NCBI RefSeq assembly: GCF_003966335.1
Contig: NZ_CP034549.1
Span: 2,250,001 to 2,282,000, forward strand
Origin: Nonlabens ponticola
Lineage (GTDB): Bacteria > Bacteroidota > Bacteroidia > Flavobacteriales > Flavobacteriaceae
DNA: 32,000 bases
Direction: 5' to 3'
The notes beneath the pieces are model-generated. The model saw only the letters and a list, made by a program, of their open reading frames with translations, ran no database searches and had not been told where the DNA came from. Shown here piece after piece: positions 1,963 to 24,055 of the stretch. Each line of letters opens with the position of its first letter. Positions within the stretch are counted from its first letter, which is position 1. Position numbers and translations under genes: made by a program.

Positions 1963-4900
1963 CTACTGCTTTTCTGGTTGTGAAGAATCGTCATTATTTT
2001 CTTCTTTCAAGGCATCCTTTTTTCTTTGATCCTTCTCGCGCTGCTCTTCTTCTTCTCTTTTAGCCTGTGCGGCTTCTTCTTGAACTGTCTTCTTGAATAG
2101 ATTAGAGAATTTGTTGAACTCTCTCGTAAAAATGACTGATATACCACTAATGACTAGTTGACCGTCGATGATGTTATCAAATTCATTGCGACGGAAACCT
2201 CTCAACTTCCACTTACCTTGTGGCGTTAACAGGTATTGAATATTCACATTACCTAAAACGGGCGCCCTATCGTTATCGCTAGAATTACCTTCTACACCTA
2301 CATCAGTACCTACACTTACAATCAATCTATCATCCAGAAGTTTCTTGCTGGCGCTTACTTCAAGGTCTGTACGTTGCTGGCTACCACCACCAGAATAATC
2401 TGTATAACTGTCCAAACCAAAGTTGAGTTCTACACCAGTATTGCCCAATAACTTACCGCCAAATTGATTTAATTGATCACTCAAAGCCTGATTGATGTTG
2501 TCACGCGCTATAGAAGCCGTACCACCACCAGCACCATCTGATCCACGAGTAGGGAAAAACTTATTGAGCACCAATAGAGAAAATACCTGCTTATTAAGTT
2601 CCTGCTCTTGCGAATTGAGTTGTTGCACCGTACCATAAACCTCGCCGCCGGCATAGCCCTGTGCATCTTCAGGCATGTCAAGTTTAAAGCTAATTTCAGG
2701 GGTCATGAGTTGACCATCGACATCTAGATAAACGAGAAAATCAAGTTCTTGCCTATAGATGGTATTGGTACCTAGATCTGCGCCACTGGTTCTTGCTGCC
2801 ATTAGCGGGCTGGCACTTGTCTCTATATCATAAACTGCGCGTACATCCATATTTGCGTCAAATGGATCGCCAGACCAGGAAACCGTACTACCCTTTTGTA
2901 AACTAAAACGGCGGTTCACAATCTCATAAAGACTTAGCTCATAGCCACCTTCTTCAACCGTGTACAATCCTGCCAGTGTTAAGCGACCATTGGGATACAT
3001 GTGAAATTGAAGATCTGCCTTACCAGACACTTGAAGATTGTCACCAGTATTGGGATCAACAATAATATTGAGCTTTGCGCCTTCGGTAACTTGGATATTT
3101 GCTTCAATGTCAAACCCTGTGACAACCGCACTTTCATCTTCAGTTTGGGTGAGTATGGCATCGGGATTTTCCTTATTTACAAACTGTACTATACCATCGC
3201 GCTGAACTAGATTAACCTCTGCAGCAGGAATGACATAGGTAAAGTCAGTCTCGTCGTCAATTTTAATTCTACCATCAACTATTGGAATGGCCAGGTCACC
3301 CTTAATAGTGGCGCTTGCGTCAAATGTTGCCTTACCATAATATAGATCATTGTCCTCACTACTAGAATCAAGAGCTGTAAATTGGTTTGCCTCTACTGAA
3401 AGATTAAATGTTGGGTTGATCAAATTTTCTGTGCCTATGAAACCGTCCACATTAATGTCATGATCTTCCTCGTCCTTGATTGTAAAATTGTTGAGCGTCA
3501 CACCATCATTATCTAGATTGATAGACTCGTTGTCTATATGATACGGCGCGTTGAGCATGCTTACTGTAAAAGCAGTCTCGTTAAAATTCAAATCACCTTG
3601 ATAAATGGGTTCTACAGTAGTACCTGTCAATGAAATGTTACCAGACAAGTAGCCACTACCATCTTCTAGAAATTCCTGCGAAAGACCAGCGATGGTTTCC
3701 ATATTGATCCTGCGCATTTGCAGTTCCATATCAAGTTGTGCGGCATTTTCATCTGCCACGTATCCACCTATCAACTCTACATCTACATTATCGCCTTGTA
3801 CCAGCAAATCAAGATCATAGGTTCCATTACCATTTGACGATGCGTCAAGATCTAATTGACCTAATGGTGTTTCAAGCGCTGTCAAATCTGTAATAGTGAG
3901 ATCTGCTACTATACCAATAGCGCCGAATAGGTCTTCAAAAATCACCTCGCCATTCATGGTTCCCGTAGCGATCTTCTCATCTGGATTGAGGTAGCTGAGA
4001 ATTGACTGTAATTTAAAATTTTCCAGCAGCAATCCTAGGTGATCTACTTCTTCCTGCGGTAGGTCTGTTCGCAATTCAATGGATTGCGCATTATTAGAAA
4101 GCCTAAAATTGCGAGCCTTGAGCTTACTCTCGCCATAGGCTAGCTCGTTATCTTCGGCAATTGTCCAGTTTTTCTTGTTTAGGATGAAATCGTCCAGCGA
4201 TAAATTAAATATCAAGTTATCAATTCCTTGTATGTCACGCTTTCGCGAAAGCTTACTCGCCACGTGCATTAATCGCTCCTCACCATCATAACTGGTAAAA
4301 TCAAGATCTAGAACATTTTGTGAAACTTTACCGTTGAGAGTTGTGCGCTGTACATCTAGAGGATCAAATTTCATCCCTTTGAATGCGATGTCAAAGCCTA
4401 GACTCTGCTCGTCTGATTGAGATTTAATAATCAGACTATCAATCTCGCTGCCTGCATATTTTACATAGGGTACGACGATATCACTGGAAAGTTTGCGTGC
4501 CTGCTCGTCAAAGTTTACCGCAAGAGTTATGGTGTCCAATGACTGCAATTGCGGTAGGATCACGTCACGCAATATGGGTGCTGGCGTGATACTACCCTTA
4601 ATTTTCATTTTGACTGGTTGAGCAGTATCGTTAGGTATCTCGTCTCTTAAATAGCGATCCACATGCCTACCTAAAGCGGCTATCAATGAAGATGGATCTG
4701 TATTTGAACGCAGCTCTAGATCCAGCATTCTATTGGCGACGTCCATAGATGTACTATCAGTACGCACGTATGCATCAATATCGACATCACCCAATAAATA
4801 AGACTGGTTGTCAAACACAGCGATACCTTCTTCAATATTTGAGCTTACCGTGTAGTTAGTGGCATCGCCCTCAAAAAAGGCGTAAATTTCTCCAGCGGCT

Positions 4901-7107
4901 TTTACATTTTGGTTGGTAATCCCAAAGGCATTGAGATCGATACCTTCAATGATCAATTCAAGATTAGCCTGACTGGCGATACTGTCCAGCGCGACGATAG
5001 CCTCAAGATTTGCGTTGATGTTGTCATCCTTATAAGAAGAGGTCAATTCGCCTTCACCGTTTTCAATCTCACCTTTTAGCGGCAAGTTTTTAATCTCGTA
5101 ATCTTTGTAAGTAAAACTCGTGACAGTAGCATCAAGCGTTGCGTCCAAAGTATTTATGGTCGTTCCTGATCCTTCTGTATCTAGTTCTAGATTTAAAATT
5201 CCTAGCTGCTCGTTTTGCAAAATGTTTCCTAGATTGAGCTCTATAACTTGCATATCTGCAGCAAAAGCAATGGTTTTTGTATTCTTGTAATTTCCTTTTA
5301 ATTCTACGTTACCTTCGGTAGTGGCTAGTGTTGCCACAGCGTCCATGTTTTGTAACGTTCCTTGAACGTCAGCAACAAGGCTTACATTTTCTGGATACTT
5401 CACACCCGATTCTTGCTCGTCCATGAACGTATTCAGGTCCGCGCGATTGGTTTTGATCTGCGCTCTAGGAAAGTTGACAAACAGATTATCAGGATCCATG
5501 GCGTTTTGCACATTACCAGATGCCGATACAGTTGTATTGTTGCCCCAAGTCAAATTGAAACTAGGTATCTGCATGTCCCGCGTGGTTCCGCGTGCTTGAA
5601 GGTTTCCACGGACATCACGTTGGGCAAGTTTGGCGAGATATTGATTTTCTCTCAACGCTGGCTGGAACCTAAAAATATCTGCAAGATCAAAAACGTATCT
5701 ATCAAAGTTGACCTGAACTTTTAATTGGTCAGGTTGATTGACTAGCGCATCTAAATCTTTATAAGTTACACGAGCATCACCTTGTAGGATGTTGTTATTA
5801 ATGTGAGCGTCGAGACCTGCAATTGAAACATTTGTTCTGGTGAGCTCGACATTTGCCGCAAATTGCTTGACGTTAATACCAGATGCTTCCTGCATTTGTA
5901 ATTCTTCCAATTCTAATTGTGCGCTGTCGTCACCCAATTTGATAATCGGCGAGATTAGATTGAATCCTTTTACATCAATCGCATTAGGATTGAAAGTTCC
6001 TTGAGTGGGTTGCTGATTGTTAACATTATACTCAAGGTTGTTGTTTACCAGGTTCAAATCCTGTAGATCGATTCTTATATCTGGCCATTCAAAACCCTGT
6101 GCATCTGGCTTGTCGCCATCATCTTGAGGATCTGTATCATTATCTACTAACGAATCCTGCATGACGATTTTGACATTGGAATCCAGCATATCGAAGTAAG
6201 ACAAGGCATAATCATTCTTGCCTACATCTGCTCTGGTGATTTCGGTCTCTAAGACTTTGAAAAATGAATCAATATTGATTTGATCTGGTACCGACTCATA
6301 TCCCATGAGCACATTGTCCAGTCGTATTTTACCTACCGTGATTTGAGGTTGCGGCGAGTTGTTGGCATCATCTACTAGGGCCTCGCCTATGGTAGTATCG
6401 GTGTTAGGACTGTAATCGGTGGTAGATTGGGTGATTTTGGTTACTGTATCCTTATCGTAAGCGATGATAGCGTCTGCGAGAACAATCTCATCAATGTCAA
6501 TGATCATTTCCTGCAGATCCAGTTTATCCATGGAAAAGTCCAGTGAACCAAATTTGACCAATCCATCAATATCTTGAACCTCATCTTGTAGCGTGATATC
6601 AAAGTCTGTAAAACTCAAATCGCCGATATCCAGCGTTAATGGTTCTGGCGTTGCCGTGGTATCCACAGTCACAAAAGTATCCATCAAAAACTGATAGTTG
6701 AATCCACTTGCGGTGTCCTGTCTCTTGATGCGTGCGACAAGTCCATTCCATTTGGCACTATTGATGGCTATGCCACCACCTTGAATGATGGGTAAAATAG
6801 GAATATCTGCCTCTAAAGATCTTGAATAAACTAAAGTATCGCCTCTTAGATCTTCCAGGTACAATCCATCCAACTGGATATTACCATCGAATGTGATGAA
6901 GAGATGCTCAATGTCAAGATTAGTTCCTGTTTCTTTCTCCACGTACTTGACGGCCTCGCCTACAATGATATTTTGTCCCCAAGGACTGCGTATGAATAGT
7001 AATAATAGAATGAGAAAAATCAGAATACCCAACATCACGCGACCTATGCGTCGCAGCCACCTATACTTCTTAGGCTGGGCAGTTTTCTCTTGTGTCTGTT
7101 CTTCCAA
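1963..7107 (-). CDS. tamB: Translocation and assembly module protein TamB-like (giant periplasm-spanning protein)
   Basis: 1714-aa ORF with a basic stretch plus a single N-terminal TM (KKYRWLRRIGRVMLGILIFLILLLLF). The body is long and beta-rich, with a DUF490-like C-terminus (GKWKLRGFRRNEFDNIIDGQLVISGISVIFTREF). It is directly followed by an Omp85 gene. The start is TTG; the basic residues before the TM argue against the internal ATG. Confidence 0.8.
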   Translation of the reverse strand: MEEQTQEKTAQPKKYRWLRRIGRVMLGILIFLILLLLFIRSPWGQNIIVGEAVKYVEKETGTNLDIEHLFITFDGNIQLDGLYLEDLRGDTLVYSRSLEADIPILPIIQGGGIAINSAKWNGLVARIKRQDTASGFNYQFLMDTFVTVDTTATPEPLTLDIGDLSFTDFDITLQDEVQDIDGLVKFGSLDFSMDKLDLQEMIIDIDEIVLADAIIAYDKDTVTKITQSTTDYSPNTDTTIGEALVDDANNSPQPQITVGKIRLDNVLMGYESVPDQINIDSFFKVLETEITRADVGKNDYALSYFDMLDSNVKIVMQDSLVDNDTDPQDDGDKPDAQGFEWPDIRIDLQDLNLVNNNLEYNVNNQQPTQGTFNPNAIDVKGFNLISPIIKLGDDSAQLELEELQMQEASGINVKQFAANVELTRTNVSIAGLDAHINNNILQGDARVTYKDLDALVNQPDQLKVQVNFDRYVFDLADIFRFQPALRENQYLAKLAQRDVRGNLQARGTTRDMQIPSFNLTWGNNTTVSASGNVQNAMDPDNLFVNFPRAQIKTNRADLNTFMDEQESGVKYPENVSLVADVQGTLQNMDAVATLATTEGNVELKGNYKNTKTIAFAADMQVIELNLGNILQNEQLGILNLELDTEGSGTTINTLDATLDATVTSFTYKDYEIKNLPLKGEIENGEGELTSSYKDDNINANLEAIVALDSIASQANLELIIEGIDLNAFGITNQNVKAAGEIYAFFEGDATNYTVSSNIEEGIAVFDNQSYLLGDVDIDAYVRTDSTSMDVANRMLDLELRSNTDPSSLIAALGRHVDRYLRDEIPNDTAQPVKMKIKGSITPAPILRDVILPQLQSLDTITLAVNFDEQARKLSSDIVVPYVKYAGSEIDSLIIKSQSDEQSLGFDIAFKGMKFDPLDVQRTTLNGKVSQNVLDLDFTSYDGEERLMHVASKLSRKRDIQGIDNLIFNLSLDDFILNKKNWTIAEDNELAYGESKLKARNFRLSNNAQSIELRTDLPQEEVDHLGLLLENFKLQSILSYLNPDEKIATGTMNGEVIFEDLFGAIGIVADLTITDLTALETPLGQLDLDASSNGNGTYDLDLLVQGDNVDVELIGGYVADENAAQLDMELQMRRINMETIAGLSQEFLEDGSGYLSGNISLTGTTVEPIYQGDLNFNETAFTVSMLNAPYHIDNESINLDNDGVTLNNFTIKDEEDHDINVDGFIGTENLINPTFNLSVEANQFTALDSSSEDNDLYYGKATFDASATIKGDLAIPIVDGRIKIDDETDFTYVIPAAEVNLVQRDGIVQFVNKENPDAILTQTEDESAVVTGFDIEANIQVTEGAKLNIIVDPNTGDNLQVSGKADLQFHMYPNGRLTLAGLYTVEEGGYELSLYEIVNRRFSLQKGSTVSWSGDPFDANMDVRAVYDIETSASPLMAARTSGADLGTNTIYRQELDFLVYLDVDGQLMTPEISFKLDMPEDAQGYAGGEVYGTVQQLNSQEQELNKQVFSLLVLNKFFPTRGSDGAGGGTASIARDNINQALSDQLNQFGGKLLGNTGVELNFGLDSYTDYSGGGSQQRTDLEVSASKKLLDDRLIVSVGTDVGVEGNSSDNDRAPVLGNVNIQYLLTPQGKWKLRGFRRNEFDNIIDGQLVISGISVIFTREFNKFSNLFKKTVQEEAAQAKREEEEQREKDQRKKDALKEENNDDSSQPEKQ
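4239..4252. repeat. Dispersed palindrome GCTTTCGCGAAAGC, copy 1 (inside tamB, read as LSRKR)
   Basis: Exact 14-mer read directly from the sequence. The TamB peptide here is ...ASKLSRKRDIQ... Confidence 0.95.
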
Positions 7108-7220
7108 TTTTAGGGTTCTAGGCGGTTGTAAAGGTTTGACTTTGCAAATTGCTAATTAACTAACGTTCAGACCGCTTTGAACAGGATAAAATTGTGTTAA
7201 TAAATGAGAGAGGCTGAAAC

Positions 7221-7247
7221 AAAAAAAGCCGCAGCAAGTGCGGCTTT
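7221..7247 (-). terminator. Rho-independent terminator downstream of icmF
   Basis: AGCCGCA (7227-7233) pairs with TGCGGCT (7239-7245) across a 5-nt loop. On the minus strand the stem is followed by a run of 7 T (A-run 7221-7227 on plus). Confidence 0.7.
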
Positions 7248-7314
7248 AATAGTGCAAAAATGAAATCTCTACCCACCAAAAAGTTTGCAGGTCTATAAAA
7301 GTTTTACTGGTCAA

Positions 7315-7336: not shown

Positions 7337-7378
7337 AAGCGATCTCCAAGGTTTTGCAGAGCAAAGTCAAGAGTCTTC

Positions 7379-10300
7379 TTACATATTACGCCTATACTGC
7401 CCACCTACTTCAAACAACGCCTCGGTGATCTGGCCTAGCGTACAGACTTTTGTAGCTTCCATCAAGTGTTCAAAGATGTTTTCTTGTTGTACTGCAGCTT
7501 GTTGTATGCTGGATAACTGTTGCTGTTGCGCTTTCGCGAAAGCGGAATGCAAACCATTTTTTGTAGCAATTTGTGCTTGCTTTTCCTCTTCTGTGGCGCG
7601 TATGACCTCAGCAGGTAAAACCGTTGGGCTACCTTTTGAACTCAAGAACGTGTTCACACCAATGATTGGGAACTCGCCTGTGTGTTTCAACATCTCGTAG
7701 TGCATAGATTCTTCCTGAATCTTGCTGCGCTGATACATGGTTTCCATCGCGCCCAGCACGCCGCCACGCTCTGTGATGCGATCAAATTCCTGCAGGACAG
7801 CATTCTCAACTAATTCTGTCAACTCTTCAATGATAAAAGCTCCTTGGATTGGGTTCTCGTTTTTGGTGAGACCCAACTCTTTGTTGATGATCAACTGGAT
7901 GGCCATCGCACGTCTTACAGATTCCTCAGTAGGTGTGGTAATGGCCTCGTCATAAGCATTGGTATGCAATGAGTTACAGTTGTCATTGATAGCGTAAAGT
8001 GCTTGCAATGTCGTCCTGATATCGTTAAAATCAATCTCTTGTGCGTGCAATGATCTACCACTGGTCTGAATATGGTATTTCAACATCTGCGCTCGCGGAT
8101 TTGCACCGTACTTGTGCTTCATGGCTTTGGCCCAAATCTTACGCGCCACACGACCTATCACAGAATATTCTGGATCGATACCATTTGAGAAGAAGAAACT
8201 CAGGTTAGGACCAAATTTATTGATGTCCATACCACGGCTCAGGTAATACTCTACATAGGTAAATCCATTAGCCAGCGTGAACGCCAGCTGCGTAATCGGA
8301 TTTGCTCCAGCCTCGGCAATGTGATAACCAGAAATCGACACACTATAGAAATTGCGTACTTTTTCTTCAATAAAATATTCCTGAACGTCACCCATGAGAC
8401 GAAGTGCAAATTCGGTCGAGAAAATACAGGTATTTTGCGCCTGATCTTCTTTTAAAATATCTGCCTGTACCGTACCGCGCACTTGAGCTAGCGTTTCTTT
8501 CTTGATGCGATCATAATTTGCCGCATCCAGAACTTGGTCTCCAGTAAGACCTAACAACATAAGGCCTAAACCATCGTTGCCTTCTGGCAGTTTGCTGGTA
8601 TCTACAGATCCGTTTTTAGAATATACTTTATCGCCATCAGCATTGAGATATGATGGACGATCTACATTATTATCGTCATAGACCTCCTTGAGCTTTGCTT
8701 CTACTCGATCGCCTAAATCATTTTCTTTGATAAAGCGCTCACAATTCTGATCTATGGCAGCATTCATAAAGAAACCTAGCAACATAGGCGCTGGCCCGTT
8801 GATGGTCATCGATACAGATGTCATGGGATGAGACAAATCAAATCCAGAATAGAGCTTTTTGGCATCATCCAGACAGCAAATGCTTACACCTGCATTACCG
8901 ATTTTACCATAAATATCTGGTCTCAAACCTGGATCATTACCATAAAGCGTGACACTATCAAAGGCTGTACTCAAACGCTTTGCGGGCATCCCTAAACTCA
9001 CATAGTGAAAACGCCTGTTGGTACGTTCTGGGCCGCCTTCTCCTGCAAACATTCTTGTAGGATCCTCGCCAGTACGTTTGAACGGATACAATCCTGCGGT
9101 ATAAGGAAACTCGCCCGGAACATTTTCCTGTAAACACCACTTGAGAATATCACCCCAAGCGCTGTATTTAGGTAAGGCTACTTTTGGTATTGGCTGGTGT
9201 GATAAGGACTCTGTATGCGTCTCAATCTTGATGACTTTATCACGCACCTTGAATTCATAAATAGGCTGCTTGTATTTATTGACCTTATCATCCCAAGTAG
9301 TGATAATTTCCCAATTGTAGGGATCTAGATCTTTGAGCGTTTTGTTGAATTGGGCAACTAATAAAGTGATGAGTTCAGAGTTATGAGTTAAGAGTAAATC
9401 CTCATTCAATCCTTTTTCAGCTAGTAACTCTGAACTTTGAACTCCAAACTCTGAACTTAAAACGGCCTGAATAGTCTTGTAAACACCATATAACTTCTGA
9501 GCAACCTCTGCTTGTACACTTGTTGTGTTATCATAAGCTCTGTTGCTTTCGGCAATCTCGCTTAGGTATCGTGTGCGCGCTGGTGGAATAACAAATATCT
9601 TCTCGCTTTGCTCCTTGATCAAATCTTGAGTTGGCGTGAGATCGACACCAGTCTTTTTGGTGACTTCCAGCATGAGCGACTCATATAAAGCGTTCATTCC
9701 CGGATCGTTAAATTGGCTTGCGATCGTTCCATAAACCGGCAAGGTTTCTGGATCTGCTTCCCAAAGATTGTGATTGCGCTGATATTGCTTCTTTACATCT
9801 CGCAACGCATCCAGTGATCCACGTTTGTCGAACTTGTTGATGGCAACCAGATCAGCAAAATCAAGCATGTCGATTTTTTCTAGCTGTGTAGCGGCACCAA
9901 ATTCTGGTGTCATTACATACAATGAGACATCGCTGTGTTCTAAAATCTCAGTATCGCTTTGCCCAATACCGCTAGTTTCAAGGATAATCAGATCATAGTC
10001 TGCAGCCTTGAGCACATCTACTGCTTCTTGAACGTGTTTGGAAAGTGCGAGATTGGATTGTCGTGTTGCCAATGATCTCATGTAAACACGATCGTTATTG
10101 ATGGCGTTCATTCTAATACGGTCTCCTAGGAGCGCGCCGCCAGTCTTACGTTTTGATGGGTCAACCGATATGATCCCGATATTTTTCTCTGGGAAATCAA
10201 TAAGAAATCTGCGTATCAATTCGTCAACTAGTGATGATTTTCCCGCACCACCAGTTCCTGTGATCCCTAATACAGGTGCTTGCTTTGGTGTTTTGTCTGC

Positions 10301-10861
10301 TTCGACAAAGTGTTTTTCAAAATCCTCATGACGATTCTCTGCCAATGATATCAATCTAGCAATTGTAGGCACGTGGTTTTGCAGTAATTCTCCATTTAAT
10401 TGCGCTTTCGCGAAAGCGGGAACTTCAACATCACACTGCTTGACCAAATCATTGATCATTCCCTGCAAGCCCATCTCACGACCATCGTCTGGACTGTAGA
10501 TGCGCGTGATGCCGTAATCCATGAGTTCTTTTATCTCCGATGGCAAGATCACGCCGCCGCCGCCGCCAAAAATCTTAATATGACCAGCGCCTTTCTCTTG
10601 CAGCAGATCATACATATATTTAAAGTACTCATTATGACCACCTTGATAAGAGGTCATCGCAATACCATTGGCATCTTCCTGAATGGCAGTATTGACAACT
10701 TCTTCTACACTCCTATCGTGACCTAGGTGAATCACCTCACAACCAGTGGATTGTATGATGCGTCGCATGATATTAATCGCTGCATCATGACCGTCAAATA
10801 GACTGGCAGCCGTAACGATTCTTACTTTGTTTTTAGGGATGTAGGGTGTTTGATCTTGCAT
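7379..10861 (-). CDS. icmF: Fused isobutyryl-CoA mutase (B12-binding domain + MeaB-like GTPase + mutase barrel)
   Basis: 1160 aa. N-terminal B12-binding domain with DxHxxG (FDGHDAAIN). Central G-protein P-loop GTGGAGKSS. Long C-terminal methylmalonyl-CoA-mutase-like domain. This three-part architecture is diagnostic for IcmF. Confidence 0.9.
7530..7543. repeat. Dispersed palindrome copy 2 (inside icmF, read as AFAKA)
   Basis: Exact 14-mer, extending to the 16-bp palindrome CGCTTTCGCGAAAGCG at 7529-7544. Peptide ...[11 protein letters not shown]... Confidence 0.95.
10404..10417. repeat. Dispersed palindrome copy 3 (inside icmF, read as AFAKA)
   Basis: Exact 14-mer, a 16-bp palindrome at 10403-10418. 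Peptide ...[11 protein letters not shown]..., in the linker between the B12 and GTPase domains. Confidence 0.95.
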
Positions 10862-11886: not shown

Positions 11887-14433
11887 ATGAAAAGTATCAT
11901 TTCAGCAGTTTTTGCTTTCTTCTTAATTTTCTCATTTTCTACTGCTCAAGAAAATAGATTGGGTAATAATCCATTGAGCAGTTCTGAAATTTATCACCAA
12001 ATAGAGAAGCTAGGTTTTCTAGGTTCTGCGCTATTTGTTGCAGCACATCCAGATGATGAAAATACCCGATTGATCTCATGGCTGGATAATGAAAAAATGG
12101 CCCGTACCGCTTATTTGTCGCTCACTCGTGGCGATGGTGGTCAAAATCTCATAGGTTCCGAATTGCGAGAGCAGCTGGGTATGATACGCACACAGGAATT
12201 GCTCGAAGCGCGCAACATTGATGGCGGCGAGCAGTTTTTTACTCGAGCAAACGACTTTGGTTACTCAAAACATCCTGATGAGACGCTGGAAATTTGGGAC
12301 AAAGAAGCTGTTTTGTCAGATGTCGTGCGCATCATTAGAAAATTCAAACCAGATGTGATCGTTAACAGATTTGATCACAGATCGCCAGGCAGCACTCATG
12401 GACATCATACCAGCAGTGCGATGTTAAGTGTTGAGGCCTTTGATCTTGCAGGGAATAAGTCGGCCTATCCAGAGCAATTGGACAACCTTGAGACCTGGCA
12501 ACCAGAGCGATTATTTTTCAATACAAGCTGGTGGTTTTATGGTAGTCGTGACGCTTTCGCGAAAGCTGACAAAACAAACCTCATCGAGGTAGAATCAGGC
12601 AATTATTATCCATATAGTGGTCGCAGCAACGGTGAGATCGCAGCATTAAGCAGAAGTCAACACCAATCTCAAGGTTTTGGATCCAGCGGCTCACGCGGCA
12701 CCTCGACGGAATATCTAGAATTTTTAAAAGGTAGCTTTCCTGAAGACAAATCAGATTTATTCTCTGGTATCAATACTAGCTGGAGTCGTATAGATGAGTC
12801 AGGATCTGTAGAAAAAGTATGGAGAAAGTTACTCGTGAACTATGATTTTAAAAATCCGTCGGCGAGTTTGAACCAGCTTTTAAAGCTTAAAACACAGCTG
12901 GAAAAATTACCAGACAGTTACTGGAAAGAGGTAAAACTGAAAGAGGTAAGACAATTAGTTCTTGATATGACAGGTGTTTATTTGAACGCAACGGTCAATC
13001 AACCTTATGCAACACCTGGCGAGACTGTAGATGTCGATATAGAAATAACAAATCGAGCACTGCAATCACTTAATTTCAAGGTAAACGGCAATTCGGACTT
13101 GCAAATAATTAAAAACAATCAGCGCGTATTACCCAACAATAGCTCAACTACGGTTGAGGCGCAGTTGTCAATTCCAAAAAATCAAAAACCTACAAATCCG
13201 TATTATCTCGAGCAAGAAGGCTCGCTAGGAATGTACGCAGTGGCAGACGAGAGCCTGATAGGCTTACCGGAAACGGATGAGCCATTTTCTGTTTCGATGG
13301 ATTTAATTTTTGACGGGCAAAAAATCAATTACGAAGTCCCAATCATTTATCAGACTACAGACCGTGTACGCGGTGAGGTCTATGAACCATTTCACATCAA
13401 ACCAGCAGTGAGTATTTCGTTTACTCAGCCTAATTACATCGTCACCAATTTTGAAGAGCCAACAGAGGTGATTGCAACGGTCAAGGCGTTTCAAGACGTG
13501 AAGAATTTTTCGATTGTGACCTCTGCAAAAGGAGATTGGAAAATTAGTACGACAAACGCCGATCTAAGTCCCATAAAAGCTGGGATGAGTAGAGAATTTA
13601 CATTCAACGTCCTACCCAAACCTGGCACTGAAGCAGATCTTCAATTTAGATTTATAGCAAATGGTCAAGTGTTTAATCAAGAAGTGGTAACAGTCGCCTA
13701 CAATCACATTCCAGATCAACAACTATTAAAGCCTGCGGCAAGTCGCATGGTGGCTCTCGATCTTAAAAATGCTGCTAAATCGGTAGCCTACATCAACGGC
13801 GCTGGCGATGATGTAACACAGGCCATTGAAGCAATGGGTACGACGGTGGTCAAATACAATCCTAATGAACTACCAGCAGATTTATCTATGTTTGACGCAG
13901 TGGTCGTTGGCATTAGAGCATTCAATGTAGCACCAGATGCGATGACAAATATCCAACCGCAGCTCAATGCTTTTGTCAACAACGGCGGCACTTTGTTAAT
14001 GCAGTATAATACAAATCGTGGTGTGCGTAGTGATGCACTAGGGCCATTGGAGATTACGCTTTCGCGAAAGCGTGTTACCGATGAAAACGCTGCTGTCGTA
14101 TTTCTTGCACCTGAACATCCAGTATTAAACACGCCTAACCAATTGACTGCCAAAGATTTTGAAGGTTGGGTTCAAGAGCGTGGCTTGTATTTTCCTGATG
14201 CCTGGGATTCAGCATTTACACCTGTTTTAGGGATGAGCGACAAAGGCGAGCCTATTACAAAAGGCAGCTTGATCGTCGCTGAATACGGCAAAGGTCATGT
14301 GGTTTACACAGGTTTGAGTCTTTTTAGGGAATTGCCTGCCGGTGTGCCAGGTGCTTACCGATTACTGGCTAATATGCTAAGTTTGAGTTCTAACAAATCA
14401 ACCATTGAAAAAGAAACCGACCAAAAACTCTAG
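11887..14433 (+). CDS. Secreted PIG-L/LmbE-family deacetylase with a long C-terminal extension
   Basis: Signal peptide MKSIISAVFAFFLIFSFSTAQ. LmbE/PIG-L motifs AHPDDEN and LTRGDGGQN, plus HxxH-like GHHTSS. 848 aa in total. The C-terminal ~200 aa look like a ThuA/GATase1-like fold; that assignment is from memory and unverified. Confidence 0.8.
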   Translation: MKSIISAVFAFFLIFSFSTAQENRLGNNPLSSSEIYHQIEKLGFLGSALFVAAHPDDENTRLISWLDNEKMARTAYLSLTRGDGGQNLIGSELREQLGMIRTQELLEARNIDGGEQFFTRANDFGYSKHPDETLEIWDKEAVLSDVVRIIRKFKPDVIVNRFDHRSPGSTHGHHTSSAMLSVEAFDLAGNKSAYPEQLDNLETWQPERLFFNTSWWFYGSRDAFAKADKTNLIEVESGNYYPYSGRSNGEIAALSRSQHQSQGFGSSGSRGTSTEYLEFLKGSFPEDKSDLFSGINTSWSRIDESGSVEKVWRKLLVNYDFKNPSASLNQLLKLKTQLEKLPDSYWKEVKLKEVRQLVLDMTGVYLNATVNQPYATPGETVDVDIEITNRALQSLNFKVNGNSDLQIIKNNQRVLPNNSSTTVEAQLSIPKNQKPTNPYYLEQEGSLGMYAVADESLIGLPETDEPFSVSMDLIFDGQKINYEVPIIYQTTDRVRGEVYEPFHIKPAVSISFTQPNYIVTNFEEPTEVIATVKAFQDVKNFSIVTSAKGDWKISTTNADLSPIKAGMSREFTFNVLPKPGTEADLQFRFIANGQVFNQEVVTVAYNHIPDQQLLKPAASRMVALDLKNAAKSVAYINGAGDDVTQAIEAMGTTVVKYNPNELPADLSMFDAVVVGIRAFNVAPDAMTNIQPQLNAFVNNGGTLLMQYNTNRGVRSDALGPLEITLSRKRVTDENAAVVFLAPEHPVLNTPNQLTAKDFEGWVQERGLYFPDAWDSAFTPVLGMSDKGEPITKGSLIVAEYGKGHVVYTGLSLFRELPAGVPGAYRLLANMLSLSSNKSTIEKETDQKL
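12553..12566. repeat. Dispersed palindrome copy 4 (inside PIG-L gene, read as AFAKA)
   Basis: Exact 14-mer. Peptide ...GSRDAFAKADKT... Confidence 0.95.
14058..14071. repeat. Dispersed palindrome copy 5 (inside PIG-L gene, read as LSRKR)
   Basis: Exact 14-mer, extending to the 18-bp palindrome ACGCTTTCGCGAAAGCGT at 14056-14073. Peptide ...EITLSRKRVTD... Confidence 0.95.
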
Positions 14434-16784: not shown

Positions 16785-17219
16785 CTAGCCGTTACTTTTT
16801 TGATTTAGGATAATTTCTAATTTGATGTCGGTTTTGAAAAGCTTTGAGACTGGGCATACATTCTTAGCCTTTTCAGCTATTTCTTTGAATTTTTCCTCGC
16901 TTATTTCGGGCACCTCACCTACTAGATTGAGATACACTTGAGTAATCTCACCATCTTCAAAAGTAACATTGGCATCAGTATGTAAATGGTCTGCCGTAAA
17001 ACCTTCTTCATTGAGTAGGAAGCTGAGCTGCATGGTGTAGCAACCTGCGTGAGCAGCACCTAGTAATTCTTCTGGATTAGTTCCTTTTTTCTCACCTTCA
17101 AATCGAGTTCCAAAAGAATATGGCGTGTCTTCAAGCACCTTACTGCCAGTATTGATGTGGCCTTTACCTTCTTTACCTGTTCCATACCAGTGTGCGTTTG
17201 CCTTCCTTGTAAATTTCAT
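16785..17219 (-). CDS. osmC: OsmC-family peroxiredoxin
   Basis: 144 aa with both conserved Cys contexts (AHAGCY and NVCPVS) and an OsmC-type N-terminus (ANAHWYGTGKEGKG). Confidence 0.85.
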   Translation of the reverse strand: MKFTRKANAHWYGTGKEGKGHINTGSKVLEDTPYSFGTRFEGEKKGTNPEELLGAAHAGCYTMQLSFLLNEEGFTADHLHTDANVTFEDGEITQVYLNLVGEVPEISEEKFKEIAEKAKNVCPVSKLFKTDIKLEIILNQKSNG

Positions 17220-17314
17220 GTGTTATGTTTTTATGTAAAATACTCAACATGCCAGATTGTAGCATGACCTTTAACGCAGGTTTAGATAATTGATGTGTGA
17301 CTGTAATTTGAATA

Positions 17315-17338
17315 ATTACGCTTTCGCGAAAGCGTAAT
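17315..17338. repeat. Dispersed palindrome copy 6, the longest form: 24-bp perfect palindrome ATTACGCTTTCGCGAAAGCGTAAT (core 17320-17333)
   Basis: Read directly from the sequence. It is intergenic, about 100 bp upstream of the osmC ATG and just downstream of the DUF2911-gene terminator. Confidence 0.95.
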
Positions 17339-17358
17339 CGCAAGAAACACTACTGCAT

Positions 17359-17391
17359 AAAAAAACCGATTGAATAAGACTCAAGCGGTTT
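17359..17391 (-). terminator. Rho-independent terminator downstream of the DUF2911 gene
   Basis: 10-bp stem with one mismatch (17364-17373 / 17381-17390) and a 7-nt loop. A T-run follows on the minus strand (A-run 17359-17365 on plus). Confidence 0.6.
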
Positions 17392-17414
17392 AAATTTTGA
17401 CTTGTAAGATCGTA

Positions 17415-18260
17415 CTACATCTTCACGCCCCATTCTTCTAAAGAGATCTTATTTAATCTCACATAATCTGGGTTGGGTGCTTCTTGAGCGAGTTTTAAAG
17501 AGGTTTTTGCACTAGCAATGGCCTTGTCTTTTTGCCCCATTTGAGCTTCCATCAGTGATTTTTTTCTCCACATCCAGTAAGCCTTAGGGCTCATCTCTAC
17601 CGCTTTATTGATCCATTCATAGGCTTGCTTCATGTCTTTACCAGAATCCATGTAGAAAGTCGCCGCACTATAATAATCTGAAGCCGTAGGACCTGTCATG
17701 ATACGATTGATACTGGCCAACATTTTGGCATCTGTAGGTACCGTGAATGGCGCTGATACCTTTACATCGTCCCACATGATATCCATCACGGCATTGTCCA
17801 TCTTCATGTCGTTTATACTGATGCTAAAGTTCTCCACCTTGCCATCAATTTTAGTTACTGGCACTTTTACTCTAGCAGCCACTAGGTTCTCATCCCAATC
17901 TTGTGGTGTACCCCAGTTATTAGTGTTAGAATAAAAAATCAATTCCCATTCTGATTTTCCTGGAATACTGTAAAGAGCATAATCGCCTGCGGCTAGCTTT
18001 GCACCACCTACAGTAACATCGTCGCCAAAACTTACAATGGTATTTGCATTTGCACCTGTACGCCATAATTTGTCATAAGGAACCAACGCACCAAATATAT
18101 TGCGATCTCTCATCGCTGGTCTTGAGTAGTCTAGTGTGACCTCGGTAAGACCTACTGTTTGTGTCACCTTTGCGCTAGGACTAGGCTGTACGGCCACGAT
18201 TTGTGCCTGTGCAAGACTTGCTGTCAAACAAACGGCTAATAATAAAATTACTTTTTTCAT
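17415..18260 (-). CDS. DUF2911-like secreted protein with a TPR-like C-terminus
   Basis: Signal peptide. The sequence SPSAKVTQTVGLTEVTLDYSRP...WRTGANANT is typical of DUF2911. The C-terminal helical repeats look TPR-like. Confidence 0.7.
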   Translation of the reverse strand: MKKVILLLAVCLTASLAQAQIVAVQPSPSAKVTQTVGLTEVTLDYSRPAMRDRNIFGALVPYDKLWRTGANANTIVSFGDDVTVGGAKLAAGDYALYSIPGKSEWELIFYSNTNNWGTPQDWDENLVAARVKVPVTKIDGKVENFSISINDMKMDNAVMDIMWDDVKVSAPFTVPTDAKMLASINRIMTGPTASDYYSAATFYMDSGKDMKQAYEWINKAVEMSPKAYWMWRKKSLMEAQMGQKDKAIASAKTSLKLAQEAPNPDYVRLNKISLEEWGVKM

Positions 18261-18281: not shown

Positions 18282-18686
18282 TTAATTAACTCCTTGTGCT
18301 TTAGAGAAGAATATCATTTTTATAGCCACAATGAGCAGCACTACTCCAAAGACTTTTTTCAATAATTGTTGATTGATGTTCACGGCGATTTTTGAGCCAA
18401 AATATCCACCTACCACAAATGCCAGCGCAATAATGAGCGCATAACGCCAGTCCAACGTATGACCGCTAGAATGATAAGTATATGCAGCAACCAGAGTTAC
18501 TGGGACTGCCAGCACGGCTAGACTCATTCCTTGTGCCTGATGTTGTGAATATCCCAGAAACCATATCGCTAGCGGTACCATCACCACGCCACCACCTACA
18601 CCTACACTACCGCTCAAGAAACCAGCAATTAGTCCTAACAGGAGAAGTAGTAAAACGATTTCTACAGTCATGGTTGGTTTTTTCAT
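18282..18686 (-). CDS. Half-size TauE/SafE-family (sulfite exporter-like) membrane protein
   Basis: 134 aa with 4 TM helices. It carries the TauE-like G-rich first helix (LIAGFLSGSVGVGGGVVMVP). That is about half the usual family length. Confidence 0.6.
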   Translation of the reverse strand: MKKPTMTVEIVLLLLLLGLIAGFLSGSVGVGGGVVMVPLAIWFLGYSQHQAQGMSLAVLAVPVTLVAAYTYHSSGHTLDWRYALIIALAFVVGGYFGSKIAVNINQQLLKKVFGVVLLIVAIKMIFFSKAQGVN

Positions 18687-18687
18687 A

Positions 18688-20151: not shown

Positions 20152-20156
20152 TTCTT

Positions 20157-21074
20157 TTACTTGTAATAACCGGCTTCAGGAATGGCGATGTGATAGAGCT
20201 TGCGTGACCTGTTGTTCAACTTAGCCTCTCGCAACCACGGATTATGGATTTTAAGTACTTTGTAGGATATTTTTTGCGCTTTCGCGAAAGCTGCCAAATC
20301 CTCAATCTCATAATCCACGTCAACATGCGTGACTGGAACCGAGGTGTATAAATGCTCAGGCGCTACCTGAAAACCGTACTTCTCAGGTTGTTCAATGATT
20401 TCCTTCAATGCCAAAATCCTAAAGACATATCGCGACGTTTCTGAATTAAGCAATAAATCATAGTAAGCATCCTCATCCTGTCGATCTTGCAGATTTGATA
20501 TTCCTGCCTTACCCGCGTTGTATGCTGCTGCGGCAAGTGTCCAGGTACCAAATCGCGCTTTACTTTCTTTTAAATACTCACAAGCGGCTCTAGTGGCCAT
20601 TTCAATGTGGTAGCGTTCATCTACATTAGAATTGACCTCAAGTCCTAGCTCGCGTGCGGTAGCTGGCATTAATTGCCAAAAACCTCTGGCTCCAGCTGGA
20701 GATACAGCTTGTGTCAAGGCACTTTCTGCGACGGCTAGATATTTAAAATCATCGGGTATGCCATTTTCTGCTAGGATAGGCTCTAGAATTGGGAAATACT
20801 TCTCGCTGCGCTTGATTAACTTGATAGCGTTTGACTGAAAGTACACGTTTGACAGCAGCTCGTTATCAAATCGCTCCTCTATATCAGGATCAGAAAGTGG
20901 GACAGATTCTCCTGCAAAATTCAAGTTTGCTGGCATCGCGAGAGAATGAACCACATAACCGTCCTTGACATGCATGTTGCTTGACTCTTGAGAATCATTT
21001 CTAGGTCCTTGAATTGCACCTACAATAGCTATTAATCCTACCGCAATGATACCACCTATCAATACTTTCTTCAT
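20157..21074 (-). CDS. Lytic transglycosylase (SLT domain, MltD-like)
   Basis: N-terminal TM/signal segment. SLT catalytic region AVAESALTQAVSPAGARGFWQLMPATARELGL and AAYNAG. The ORF track starts at TTG 21080; ATG 21074 is equally possible. Confidence 0.85.
   Translation of the reverse strand: MKKVLIGGIIAVGLIAIVGAIQGPRNDSQESSNMHVKDGYVVHSLAMPANLNFAGESVPLSDPDIEERFDNELLSNVYFQSNAIKLIKRSEKYFPILEPILAENGIPDDFKYLAVAESALTQAVSPAGARGFWQLMPATARELGLEVNSNVDERYHIEMATRAACEYLKESKARFGTWTLAAAAYNAGKAGISNLQDRQDEDAYYDLLLNSETSRYVFRILALKEIIEQPEKYGFQVAPEHLYTSVPVTHVDVDYEIEDLAAFAKAQKISYKVLKIHNPWLREAKLNNRSRKLYHIAIPEAGYYK
20278..20291. repeat. Dispersed palindrome copy 7 (inside the lytic transglycosylase gene, read as AFAKA)
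   Basis: Exact 14-mer. Codon phase was checked by hand. Peptide ...DLAAFAKAQKIS... Confidence 0.95.
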
Positions 21075-21121
21075 CTTCAAATTTTTGTTTAAAGATAAAA
21101 TATTGCTCAGATTAACTAGTC

Positions 21122-21772: not shown

Positions 21773-21840
21773 AGTTTCAATAGGCAATTAAAAATCAGCA
21801 TATTAACATTGTTAAAAACTTAACATATACTGAAGTGTTG

Positions 21841-21848
21841 TATATTTG
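21841..21848 (+). promoter_or_regulatory. Putative -7 box TATATTTG upstream of the small GNAT-like gene
   Basis: Exact TAnnTTTG match 67 nt upstream of ATG 21915. Confidence 0.3.
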
Positions 21849-21914
21849 CAAAGTTAATCAAGCAATTTTTATCCTAGCTCTCATACCTATAATGACAATA
21901 CTTATAGGTGCTAA

Positions 21915-22253
21915 ATGTTGCGCGACTGGATCAAAAGAATGAATATGGATACTACAACGATTGAAATTACCGACAACGCTTTTCTACGTCAATATGAAAC
22001 GTTGCTCGATGGCAAAAAAGCCAAAATTGAATACGCACAACAAGAGCGCAAAATATTCCTTACTAAATTAATTATTCCAGAAAGTCACGCTGACGATGCA
22101 GACTTTAAGACTGATTTTCTCAAAGCAGTTTTTGCAGATATTAGAGACAACAAAAAGCTCAAGGTTGTGCCTACACACCCTACCATCGCAGGTTTTGTAC
22201 GTAAGCACCGCAATGAATACAAAGAAATGTTACCAGTAGGTATCAGTATCTAA
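21915..22253 (+). CDS. Small GNAT-like (YjdJ-type) protein
   Basis: About 100-112 aa. The C-terminal KLKVVPTHPTIAGFVRKHRNEYKEML resembles the ...kviP.Cpfv..y..khpey.dl tail of single-domain GNAT-like proteins. In-frame ATGs at 21939 and 21945 are alternative starts. Confidence 0.5.
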   Translation: MLRDWIKRMNMDTTTIEITDNAFLRQYETLLDGKKAKIEYAQQERKIFLTKLIIPESHADDADFKTDFLKAVFADIRDNKKLKVVPTHPTIAGFVRKHRNEYKEMLPVGISI

Positions 22254-22264
22254 ACACTTGTTTT

Positions 22265-22999
22265 TTAGCTTTTCATCCACAATTTTATAGCACGTTCTAG
22301 ATCTTGCGGTGTATCAATACCAATACTGGCTTGAGATGTCTTGATCATGCGTATTTTTTTACCATGTTCTAGATATCTTATACCTTCAATTTTTTCAGCT
22401 AGTTCTAGTGGTGTAGGTTGTGAATGGTAGAAGTCCATTAATGCTTTTTTCCTAAAAGCATAGATACCAATATGTTTATATACTGGCTGGATATGATGCT
22501 CATCTCGTTGAAATGGGATTGCGGCTCGTGAGAAATACATAGCGTTGCTACATTGATCTACAATCACTTTTACATTATTAGGATTCTCAACATCCGCTGG
22601 GTCTATTAATTCATGCATGAGCGATGTGAGATCAATGGATTGATCTTGATCCTTTTCAAAAATTTCAAGCAGTCGTGATAAATCCTCGCGATTTGTAAAT
22701 GGTTCATCTCCTTGTACATTGACCACAATGTCCGCATCTATATTCTGGGCAGCCTCGGCAATGCGATCTGTGCCGCACTCGTGCTCTTTTTGACTCATGA
22801 TTGCGTTACCGCCATGCTGTAGTATCACATCATGAATCTTACCGCTATCTGTCACGACAAATACCTCATCAAAAAGCTGGGTGTTTACCGTCGCTTCATA
22901 AGTGCGCACGATGACAGGCTTGCCAGCAAGATCCTGCAATAATTTTTCAGGAAAGCGAGAAGCTTGTAATCTGGCTGGAATGATGGCGATTTTGCGCAT
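22265..22999 (-). CDS. kdsB: 3-deoxy-manno-octulosonate cytidylyltransferase (CMP-KDO synthetase)
   Basis: 244 aa. N-terminus IAIIPARLQASRFPEKLL and VNVQGDEP are typical KdsB motifs. Confidence 0.9.
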   Translation of the reverse strand: MRKIAIIPARLQASRFPEKLLQDLAGKPVIVRTYEATVNTQLFDEVFVVTDSGKIHDVILQHGGNAIMSQKEHECGTDRIAEAAQNIDADIVVNVQGDEPFTNREDLSRLLEIFEKDQDQSIDLTSLMHELIDPADVENPNNVKVIVDQCSNAMYFSRAAIPFQRDEHHIQPVYKHIGIYAFRKKALMDFYHSQPTPLELAEKIEGIRYLEHGKKIRMIKTSQASIGIDTPQDLERAIKLWMKS

Positions 23000-23000
23000 G

Positions 23001-23453
23001 TTAGTAATTTAATGGGACTGTAAATTTACCACCAGCTTCTTCCACCTGAATACCTTTTGATCTCAAAAAGTCGGTAAAATCTGCTAATTGAGCATCTGTA
23101 TCAAAAGCTAATTGTCGGTATTTGATGACACTTAATTTCAAATTAACCGAACGTCCTTGAGAGCTTTTTCGGTACACTGCCTTTTCTATAGTTTCCAATT
23201 TAATTTCACGTGCCACACTATTTGTTATGAATAGTAGGAATGACAACAAAAACGCTATGACTCCAATACCTGTGATAATCACAGCCATTGCACTAGGAAC
23301 GTAATCAATTAATGGTCTTATCATATTGACGCCACTGAAGACTCCTATCATGATAAACGCCCATAATCTGTACCTAGCGTTATCTTCTATCATAACGTTC
23401 TGTGTGGATTCATCCCAGCTCCACTGTGCTGATTTTCTATCTAAAAAACTCAT
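23001..23453 (-). CDS. Hypothetical membrane protein (2 TM + soluble C-terminal domain)
   Basis: 150-aa ORF. It has a 4-nt overlap (ATGA) with the upstream DUF4126 gene and a 1-nt gap to kdsB. I recognise no domain. Confidence 0.6.
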   Translation of the reverse strand: MSFLDRKSAQWSWDESTQNVMIEDNARYRLWAFIMIGVFSGVNMIRPLIDYVPSAMAVIITGIGVIAFLLSFLLFITNSVAREIKLETIEKAVYRKSSQGRSVNLKLSVIKYRQLAFDTDAQLADFTDFLRSKGIQVEEAGGKFTVPLNY

Positions 23454-24055
23454 GATGTGGTTGTAGGTTTATTGTGATTATGCTTTCGCGAAAGCTGACT
23501 CCTCTTAAACATTTTCTTATACAATTTGCGTATCCCAAGAATGAGCAACACTACAAGAATGAATGCGATTACTGGAGCAAAAATAGATAGAAAACTAAGC
23601 ACAAGACTGAAGACGACTTCCACCACATTAATGATGGGATTTGCGATTCCTGCTGTGGCGGTCGTGCTGGCCGCTCTAGTAGCACCAGTGCTGCTGGCAA
23701 TTGTTGCTGCTGTACCACCACCTGCAATGATGGCCAGTGTCCAGCTGTAAATAGGGTCAAGATCTGTTACCACGCTTACCATTACTAATGTTCCTGCGAT
23801 AGTCGCGAGAGGTATGGTGATGCTGTCCAATAAGTTATCTACTACTGGAATGAAATAGGCTGCAATCTCTATCACAGATGCGACACTTAATAGCGTGATG
23901 GCCGTCAAGCTGCCAGCCCATTGCCAGCTCTCGTTGAGTGGTATCCAGCCTACATAACTTGCAATACTAAGCAGCAATAAAGGCACAAAAACACGGAAGC
24001 CTGCACTGGCGCTTAATCCTATTCCTAATAATACACTTGCGATGATTTCCCACAT
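23450..24055 (-). CDS. DUF4126-like integral membrane protein
   Basis: 201 aa and polytopic. The N-terminus IGLSASAGFRVFVPLL is typical of DUF4126. Confidence 0.7.
   Translation of the reverse strand: MWEIIASVLLGIGLSASAGFRVFVPLLLLSIASYVGWIPLNESWQWAGSLTAITLLSVASVIEIAAYFIPVVDNLLDSITIPLATIAGTLVMVSVVTDLDPIYSWTLAIIAGGGTAATIASSTGATRAASTTATAGIANPIINVVEVVFSLVLSFLSIFAPVIAFILVVLLILGIRKLYKKMFKRSQLSRKHNHNKPTTTS
23482..23495. repeat. Dispersed palindrome copy 8 (in the basic C-terminal tail of the DUF4126 protein, read as LSRKH)
   Basis: Exact 14-mer. Peptide ...KRSQLSRKHNHNK... Confidence 0.95.

Follow-up and report, generated by a model that had tools for sequence, protein, structure and literature searches.

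A perfect 14-bp palindrome recurs as a probable DNA-level signal in coding and non-coding DNA of Nonlabens

The 32-kb window analysed here (32,000 nucleotides of Nonlabens ponticola, contig NZ_CP034549.1, positions 2,250,001–2,282,000) contains nine exact copies of the 14-mer GCTTTCGCGAAAGC, compared with 0.00 in 100 dinucleotide-preserving shuffles. The same word recurs about once per 3–4 kb in every Nonlabens genome sampled, where it occupies all three reading frames, spacers and a structural RNA. Analysis of these copies makes it very probable that GCTTTCGCGAAAGC is a DNA-level signal specific to Nonlabens, written into the sequence by substitution and actively maintained; this degree of confidence does not extend to its function, which is weighed separately below.

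In addition to the window, the Nonlabens sample covered the neighbourhood of the IcmF gene (~23 kb each) in nine genomes of Nonlabens or Nonlabens-like bacteria, together with one more syntenic locus (L327). Ten Nonlabens IcmF-neighbourhood loci (244 kb, GC 35–45%) hold 63 exact copies, equivalent to 1 per 3.9 kb, and only eight copies with one mismatch. Degenerate copies therein are a low fraction, about 10%, and the window itself has no further copy at one, two or three mismatches. Among the matches listed, no copy of GCTTTCGCGAAAGC was found in 79 IcmF loci of other Bacteroidota, and a 12-mer repeat scan of these outgroup loci returned no comparable iterated 12-mer that might represent a different 'dialect'.

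Copies of the palindrome in the window

GCTTTCGCGAAAGC is a perfect 14-bp palindrome, and direct reading of its 12 trinucleotides bears out the initial annotation in that none of them (0/12) is a stop codon in any frame. Seven of the nine window copies lie inside coding sequences; the other two are at 17320, in a spacer, and at 27845, in the RNase P RNA gene. Host proteins were assigned by Pfam as TamB, a fused isobutyryl-CoA mutase (IcmF), PIG-L, SLT and DUF4126. The copies, and the RNA gene that holds the last of them, are as follows.

4239..4252: TamB, open reading frame (ORF) 1963-7107, minus strand; read K-LSRKR-D at residue 952
7530..7543: IcmF C-terminal site, ORF 7379-10861, minus strand; read AFAKAQ at residue 1107
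10404..10417: IcmF linker between the B12 and G domains, minus strand; read AFAKAQ at residue 149
12553..12566: PIG-L family protein, ORF 11887-14433, plus strand; read AFAKAD at residue 223
14058..14071: PIG-L family protein, ORF 11887-14433, plus strand; read T-LSRKR-V at residue 724
17320..17333: spacer between DUF2911 (17415-18260, minus strand) and OsmC (16785-17219, minus strand); part of the 24-bp palindrome ATTACGCTTTCGCGAAAGCGTAAT
20278..20291: SLT lytic transglycosylase, ORF 20157-21080, minus strand; read AFAKAQ at residue 264
23482..23495: DUF4126 C-terminal tail, ORF 23450-24055, minus strand; read Q-LSRKH-N at residue 187
27845..27858: expanded P9 hairpin inside the RNase P RNA gene (Rfam RF00010 match)
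27623..27986: rnpB, bacterial RNase P RNA class A, minus strand (Rfam RF00010, 176 bits)

The frames and coordinates first proposed for the coding copies hold. Four are read as AFAKA (two in IcmF and one each in the PIG-L protein and SLT) and three as LSRK(R/H) (TamB, PIG-L and DUF4126), and all seven lie in long ORFs that are intact, as had been claimed. The 18-mer GCTTTCGCGAAAGCGCAA, read as AFAKAQ and reported earlier to be shared by three of the AFAKA copies, is common to those at 7530, 10404 and 20278.

The copies are alike in very little beyond the word itself. In the Nonlabens loci, the nucleotides next to the 14-mer are C at −1 and G at +1 in 86% of half-sites, so that the effective core is the 16-mer CGCTTTCGCGAAAGCG, which is complete in 47 of the 63 copies (75%). 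Outside these ±1 positions the flanks are unrelated, with no shared sequence of 30 bp or more. Left and right flanks likewise do not co-vary there, except in a few spacer copies, and a structure-driven origin of the symmetry is therefore not supported.

The ORF labelled IcmF (7379-10861, minus strand) combines B12-binding, MeaB and methylmalonyl-CoA-mutase domains, as expected of a fused isobutyryl-CoA mutase; these Pfam domains rule out IcmF in the sense of a secretion-system protein. Its closest orthologue in Nonlabens (locus L081) has 94% identity to it, whereas the adjoining PIG-L protein is only 57% identical. TamB orthologues in other loci are ~44–55% identical, and L081 is without one. 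The contrast in conservation between IcmF and the neighbouring genes within one neighbourhood is very large.

Constraint on the DNA word and origin of the copies

Codon usage at the motif separates conservation of the DNA from conservation of the peptide. Across alignment columns with an invariant residue, all species agree on the codon in only 4–5% of cases, and pairwise codon identity is 0.41–0.48. The motif codons, by comparison, are identical in nine of ten Nonlabens species at the IcmF C-terminal site (7530) and in seven of eight at the PIG-L LSRKR site, where the eighth species is off by one synonymous base. The codons retained at this PIG-L site are CTT TCG CGA AAG, of which TCG and CGA are otherwise rare (4.6 and 4.7 per 1000, respectively).

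The encoded peptides follow the DNA word. All 41 occurrences of AFAKA in Nonlabens ORFs are encoded by one 14-mer, of 64 possible encodings, and AFAKA does not occur in the ORFs of the 79 outgroup loci (547,000 residues). Similarly, 16 of 18 LSRK and 15 of 17 FRES occurrences in Nonlabens ORFs are motif-encoded. The possibility raised at the outset, that AFAKA or LSRKR might be conserved at the same positions through different codons, is therefore not borne out. At the DUF4126 tail, the orthologous 14-mer is read Q-LSRKH in the window (23482-23495) and S-AFAKA-E in L327 (7363-7376), and the tail has changed frame around a fixed DNA word. This basic C-terminal tail is also longer in Nonlabens than in other genera.

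All three frames are in use once the tabulation proposed in the initial annotation is carried beyond the window. The Nonlabens loci have 31 AFAKA, 12 LSRK and four RFRES readings, and the metagenome contigs described below have 62, 20 and 30, respectively, among the matches listed. The absence of the third frame from the window (0/7), to which no significance had been attached, is accordingly a sampling effect: (R)FRES occurs four times in other Nonlabens loci and at least 30 times in metagenomic contigs.

These observations bear on the proposal of a peptide- or RNA-level function, in which AFAKA or LSRKR would be selected as such or the hairpin would act as a terminator or RNA stability element. 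A native FAK in the SLT family speaks for it, as does the extension of some spacer copies to palindromes of 22–26 bp. Selection on the peptide is nevertheless rejected because of the single encoding of AFAKA, its absence from outgroups and the frame switch at an orthologous site; the same DNA, moreover, appears in three frames, on both strands, in spacers and in rnpB. The AFAKA, LSRKR and RFRES peptides are tolerated coding by-products of a DNA-level signal. The RNA half of the proposal fares no better at the spacer copies described below, and the proposal as a whole is now barely credible.

In the spacer downstream of DUF2911, five genomes (L081, L082, L084, L327 and L001) have a copy 12–20 nt past the stop codon and before a canonical terminator. 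The pre-terminator position is empty in the window spacer (17220-17414), where the copy instead follows the same terminator, and one genome is without any copy. This arrangement suggests turnover with a copy kept somewhere in the neighbourhood. As the copy has moved around a separate, conserved terminator, the motif is not itself the terminator. Correspondingly, none of the motif copies received a terminator-like call, the 16-mer hairpin is weak (−4.3 kcal/mol, z = −0.9) and most copies are intragenic; an intrinsic terminator or RNA hairpin was rejected on these grounds. Nor does the motif have the form of an intrinsic terminator, a GC-rich hairpin with a T-run at gene ends.

The copy in rnpB, at first sight intergenic, lies in P9, which is 47 nt long in the window and 6 nt in the Rfam model RF00010. 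The intact copy there pairs with an upstream second copy degraded by transitions (~27873-27889), giving a long helix. The rnpB gene of L327 (2807-3138) also carries the motif in P9, which the 16-mer caps directly. A GNRA loop is the usual end of P9 in RNase P RNA, and CGC-GAAA-GCG is what the motif spells in its right half, which marks rnpB as another pre-adapted site.

The manner in which copies arise was addressed with codon alignments of IcmF, PIG-L and TamB across 7–10 species and with protein alignments of SLT and DUF4126 (120 homologues each). In ten coding site families in which the motif is present in some genomes and absent from others, compared over 8–11 Nonlabens genomes and many outgroups, no gain or loss coincides with an indel. 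Orthologues without the motif have the same length and near-cognate peptides. At PIG-L column 263, for example, AFAKA (GCT TTC GCG AAA GCG) corresponds to a motif-less AFEKA (GCT TTT GAA AAA GCA), AFENA, AFDNA or NFEKA. At IcmF column 508, AFAKAQ in one genome is ASAKAQ (13/14 nt) in another and ATAKAQ in others, and at TamB column 254 AFAKAE with the motif corresponds to SFAKSE and SLAKAE without it. In SLT, the motif-encoded AFAKA aligns to xFAK[E/D/K/S]x in other genera, again with no indel.

The window copies fit the same pattern when followed individually. In other genera, the IcmF column at 7530 is occupied by peptides of the A[FYK]x[ED] type that do not differ in length, and the IcmF linker copy (10404), present in eight of ten species, aligns gap-free to TRYAPTT of the solved Cupriavidus metallidurans enzyme (PDB 4xc6). 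The PIG-L copy at 12553 is found in four of eight species, the rest having the four motif-less peptides listed above for this protein and no indel. The TamB copy at 4239 has orthologous copies in L082, L083 and L084 and is substituted in L001, and the SLT site is AFAKA throughout Nonlabens, with the DNA copy also in L327 and L087. Most are old copies, orthologous throughout the genus, and not recent ones. The alignments also show that it takes no more than a few substitutions to make a copy, at sites that are tolerant and were pre-adapted. The earlier suggestion that the motif accumulated by substitution or conversion at permissive positions is upheld, and the extra insertions with compensating indels that would have pointed the other way were not seen in alignment with motif-less orthologues.

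Insertion by a mobile element was rejected as the source of the copies, no indel being found at any motif gain or loss. The corresponding reading, a miniature mobile element or a repeat of the repetitive extragenic palindromic (REP) type that inserts in frame into genes, is largely refuted and retains only the slimmest probability. It would account for a repeated palindrome and for the expansion of rnpB P9 at the copy, and in-frame insertions of 27 and 39 nt, as well as a change of +1 nt, lie exactly at the dyad of a copy. A 14-bp insertion would, on the other hand, shift the frame, the copies have no shared flanks past ±1 nt, and the insertions at the dyad disrupt copies and create none.

Comparison with known insertion-type repeats leads in the same direction. 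REP elements and bacterial interspersed mosaic elements (BIMEs), miniature inverted-repeat transposable elements (MITEs) and Rickettsia palindromic elements (RPEs) are likewise repeated palindromic DNA, and RPEs also occur in frame inside intact genes. These elements arise by insertion, measure tens to ~150 bp and, in the case of REPs, lie outside genes, whereas the Nonlabens copies share only 14–16 bp, are 65–75% intragenic and show neither insertion polymorphism nor any indel at gain or loss.

The three indels at the dyad are themselves of interest. In the IcmF linker of L001 (~10445-10500), a 27-nt in-frame insertion splits the copy (CCATTTC|27|GCGAAAGCG); it is common to N. antarcticus/dokdonensis-type proteins (N. 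antarcticus clade). In TamB of L087 (~17860-17920), a 39-nt in-frame insertion splits the orthologue of the window copy at 4239 (ACGCTTTCA|39|CGAAAGCGT). At the IcmF C-terminal site of L086 (~13350), one nucleotide has been added (GCTTTCGCG-G-AAAGC), giving the reading AFAES, and the frame is regained within 12 nt. The three events are independent, each falls exactly at the dyad of an existing copy, and the palindrome centre may be a hotspot of breakage or slippage.

Spacing, genomic distribution and spread

The distances between copies are much more regular than a random placement would give. The eight intervals in the window measure 1505–4363 bp, with a coefficient of variation (CV) of 0.29 (P = 0.0004); for the shortest of them to be so long, P = 0.014. 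Metagenome contigs give an independent view: 67 intervals among the matches listed have a median of 3.4 kb and a CV of 0.55, compared with 0.87 expected, and 9% of them are below 1 kb, compared with 29% expected. No simulation reached either 9% or a CV of 0.55. Both tests, on the window only and on the metagenome contigs, avoid pseudo-replication.

In the Nonlabens loci and metagenome contigs, non-coding DNA holds 25–35% of copies and makes up ~8–10% of the sequence, an enrichment of ~3-fold; the intragenic share is 65–75%. The longest motif-free gaps (7–9 kb; L082 13313-20431, L086 10445-19812 and L088 13469-22514) coincide with lineage-specific cargo genes of the type IX secretion system (T9SS), which encode Por_Secre_tail, LRR and DUF285/CHU_C domains. 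The motif is slow to appear in new genes. T9SS cargo genes lie between IcmF and TamB in other species; the window lacks them, and TamB there directly adjoins IcmF.

Beyond the assembled loci, a metagenome scan with the 16-mer recovered at least 120 stretches, among them 42 low-GC marine contigs with 2–4 copies each. In total, at least 187 exact copies and 18 one-mismatch copies were counted in marine metagenome contigs among the matches listed, and the taxonomic range of the motif defined in this way is a lower bound. In metagenomes, Nonlabens DNA can be recognised by the motif, which serves as a diagnostic tag.

Viral sequences gave, among the matches listed, mostly single motif matches at chance level. 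The prophage-like contig IMGVR_UViG_2617271332_000001 (L141) differs in having copies at 4210, 7851 and 10955, spaced 3.6 and 3.1 kb apart, a density like that of the host. Among the gene products of this contig are an S49 protease, an amidase and one with a phage depolymerase domain. Several other IMG/VR contigs have 2–3 copies. In the outgroup locus L065, from a Chitinophagales metagenome-assembled genome, ~10 dispersed copies of overlapping 12-mers occur (e.g. GTTTCAGTACGA and GAATTAGTCGTA); this set has no relation to the motif of Nonlabens and may represent a CRISPR array or some other family of repeats.

Known systems and candidate functions

The uptake signal sequences (USS) of Pasteurellaceae and the DNA uptake sequences (DUS) of Neisseriaceae resemble the Nonlabens motif in many respects. 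They are clade-specific, exact short motifs with hundreds or more copies, which lie inside genes in preferred frames, inflate the peptides that they encode and fall at poorly constrained residues. They are furthermore enriched between genes, absent from lineage-specific genes, spaced more evenly than random and created by substitution, not insertion (PMC2817400, PMC1939737). More specifically, USS and DUS double the encoded peptides, avoid conserved residues and are missing from genes without homologues (PMC2817400), and USS spacing is even (PMC1939737). The Nonlabens motif is correspondingly an over-represented, exact clade motif; its copies, made by substitution at tolerant residues in both coding and non-coding DNA, at least double the encoded peptides. 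The likeness to USS drawn in the initial annotation accordingly goes further: the motif is also evenly spaced, enriched between genes and missing from lineage-specific ones. The differences are that the Nonlabens motif is a perfect palindrome of 14–16 bp, whereas USS and DUS are asymmetric 9–12-mers, that its density is ~3-fold lower with fewer one-mismatch copies, and that it belongs to the phylum Bacteroidota.

HIP1 (GCGATCGC) of cyanobacteria is the closer parallel in form, being palindromic, hyper-abundant and located both within and between genes. Its orthologous sites are conserved beyond codon usage, and it has recently been linked to transformation and recombination (PMC5861425, PMC4390886, bioRxiv 10.1101/2024.09.10.611283). 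HIP1-type palindromes are characterised by this sequence or a near variant in cyanobacteria, together with orphan GATC/CGATCG methyltransferases. The Nonlabens word shares the character of a hyper-abundant palindrome whose orthologous sites are conserved beyond coding constraint. It differs in phylum and in sequence, is ~twice as long, occurs at a 3- to 10-fold lower density and in one genus, where HIP1 spans a phylum, is spaced evenly at ~3.5 kb, where HIP1 has a 10–90 kb periodicity, and is without a known cognate methyltransferase. The Nonlabens motif works like USS/DUS and HIP1 and is a member of neither.

The way in which copies come about and persist can be outlined from the alignments. 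They arise by a few point substitutions where the sequence already encodes something close to A-F-x-K-A, L-S-R-K-R or R-F-R-E-S, and in other pre-adapted places such as basic tails, variable linkers and a GNRA-capped RNA hairpin. Once formed, they stay unchanged, synonymous positions included, across species in which other synonymous sites are saturated, and where a copy is lost, another can take its place close by. Exact copies, perfect dyad symmetry and a weak hairpin energy together point to recognition as duplex DNA, presumably by a homodimeric protein. Upkeep could then proceed by selection for binding, by recognition-biased gene conversion (molecular drive) or by both.

As to function, the foremost candidate, put forward tentatively and by analogy only, is a tag that would mark self DNA for uptake or recombination in the manner of USS/DUS and HIP1. 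In its fuller and equally tentative form, the word would be a palindromic 16-bp self-recognition signal with a homodimeric receptor, its ~3.5 kb spacing kept by recognition-biased gene conversion that would overwrite proteins, spacers and even the RNase P RNA. Natural transformation is the common link of the two precedents, USS/DUS and HIP1. HIP1 is reported to enhance transformation (bioRxiv 10.1101/2024.09.10.611283), and Riemerella, also of the Flavobacteriales, is naturally competent and prefers self DNA by a mechanism described as unknown (PMC7965970). The 32-kb window contains no competence genes. In full-text searches, neither the 14-mer nor an iterated palindrome in Nonlabens or flavobacteria came up.

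Several points weigh against the interpretation of GCTTTCGCGAAAGC as a genus-specific, maintained signal and against its role as an uptake tag. The analysis is based on ~260 kb of assembled Nonlabens loci and on fragments, such that the figure of ~700–800 copies per genome is an extrapolation; each outgroup was represented by one locus of ~20 kb; the frame tallies derive from stop-to-stop ORFs; and the pooled spacing of the ten orthologous loci (CV 0.52 versus 0.89) is pseudo-replicated. Known uptake sequences are asymmetric and shorter than the Nonlabens palindrome. To our knowledge, no binding protein, methylation state or competence phenotype has been described for Nonlabens. Flavobacterium johnsoniae, moreover, was not transformable (PMC7965970).

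A chromosome-architecture site is a possible, though less probable, alternative. An abundant dimeric binder would organise or segregate the nucleoid by a logic like that of ParB/Noc, SlmA or MatP, and regular spacing would be selected with no role in uptake. A perfect 14–16 bp dyad is typical of dimeric binders, and strongly regular spacing would follow, as would copies that change position while the vicinity retains one. The conservation of HIP1 sites, likewise, was argued to reflect selection and a nucleoid role (PMC5861425). The parS/ParB, NBS/Noc, SBS/SlmA and matS/MatP systems resemble the motif in that each has a 12–16 bp dyad-symmetric site, often within genes. Such sites are read as a duplex by a dimer and have a core of the TTTC...GAAA type. 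The motif core TTTC-N2-GAAA loosely recalls parS (TTTC-N4-GAAA) and Noc sites, a resemblance that we take to be presumptive and a lead only.

The numbers fit this alternative less well. Systems of the ParB/Noc, SlmA and MatP type have tens of sites, often regionally confined, and not ~1 per 4 kb. The Nonlabens motif has ~10–100 times more copies, occurs in every neighbourhood sampled, including unlinked ones (e.g. the L085 and L088 flanks and the metagenome contigs), and is spread at 1 per 3.9 kb, as opposed to a few to tens of clustered copies; its half-site spacing is 2 bp off that of parS and NBS. In addition, the absence of the motif from recently acquired genes would be left unexplained unless accumulation is slow.

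A mutational bias without function is an unlikely explanation. A genus-specific DNA methyltransferase or a Vsr-like short-patch repair system, of the HIP1/Elhai type, would recognise a part of the motif (CGCG, TCGCGA) and turn near-matches into the whole. The 16-mer does have four CpGs, and the TCGCGA and CGCG in it are of the kind that methylases typically target; one-mismatch copies are few, and HIPs correlate with orphan methyltransferases (PMC4390886). Action on a context of 14–16 bp would nevertheless be unprecedented, and such a bias predicts steady creation at new sites, contrary to the strong orthologous conservation seen. It also does not predict even spacing, and the one-mismatch variants in the ten Nonlabens loci are not exclusively C-to-T transitions.

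Doubtful, and ranked just after repair bias, is a Chi-like signal for recombination or nuclease attenuation, which would make a RecBCD/AddAB-type or defence nuclease, arriving from either side, cease degradation and begin repair, and would in this way mark self DNA. The motif density of 1 per 3.9 kb is similar to that of Chi in Escherichia coli, even spacing would protect any break, and the prophage-like contig L141 carries copies at host-like spacing. Known Chi sites are asymmetric words of 5–8 nt that are recognised in single-stranded form and share the orientation of replication, and a 14–16 bp duplex palindrome matches none of these properties; a perfect palindrome of this length cannot be oriented as Chi is. 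HIP1 itself has been proposed to be partly Chi-like (bioRxiv 10.1101/2024.09.10.611283).

The candidate functions are thus ranked with an uptake or recombination tag first, followed by a chromosome-architecture site, methyltransferase or repair bias and, last of these, a Chi-like signal; sequence analysis alone cannot separate them. The case predicts sequence-specific uptake with natural competence in a marine flavobacterium, a dimeric binder and a genus-specific gene. The leading candidate, a self-DNA tag, would, if true, make Nonlabens the first of the Bacteroidota with a system of the USS/DUS kind, and no earlier system of that kind is palindromic. If the motif is instead the loading site of a chromosome-organising protein, with ~750 sites per genome, it would be equally novel. 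Constructs for the transformation of Nonlabens may also need to carry the motif, just as those for Synechococcus need HIP1.

Few clades are known to have exact motifs that are so abundant and that overwrite coding sequence, namely two proteobacterial families with USS/DUS and the cyanobacteria with HIP1, and whether such words originate through selection or molecular drive is a matter of continuing debate. With Nonlabens as a third and independent case, a clean natural experiment would be at hand, which combines another phylum with a long, perfect palindrome, very few degenerate copies, conservation at orthologous sites across the genus and strikingly even spacing.

One further feature of the window concerns a neighbour of the DUF2911 gene. 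The TauE/SafE ORF (18282-18686, minus strand) encodes 134 residues and covers Pfam profile positions 129–237 of 237, which correspond to the C-terminal half. TauE/SafE orthologues in other Nonlabens are similarly short, at 127–140 residues.

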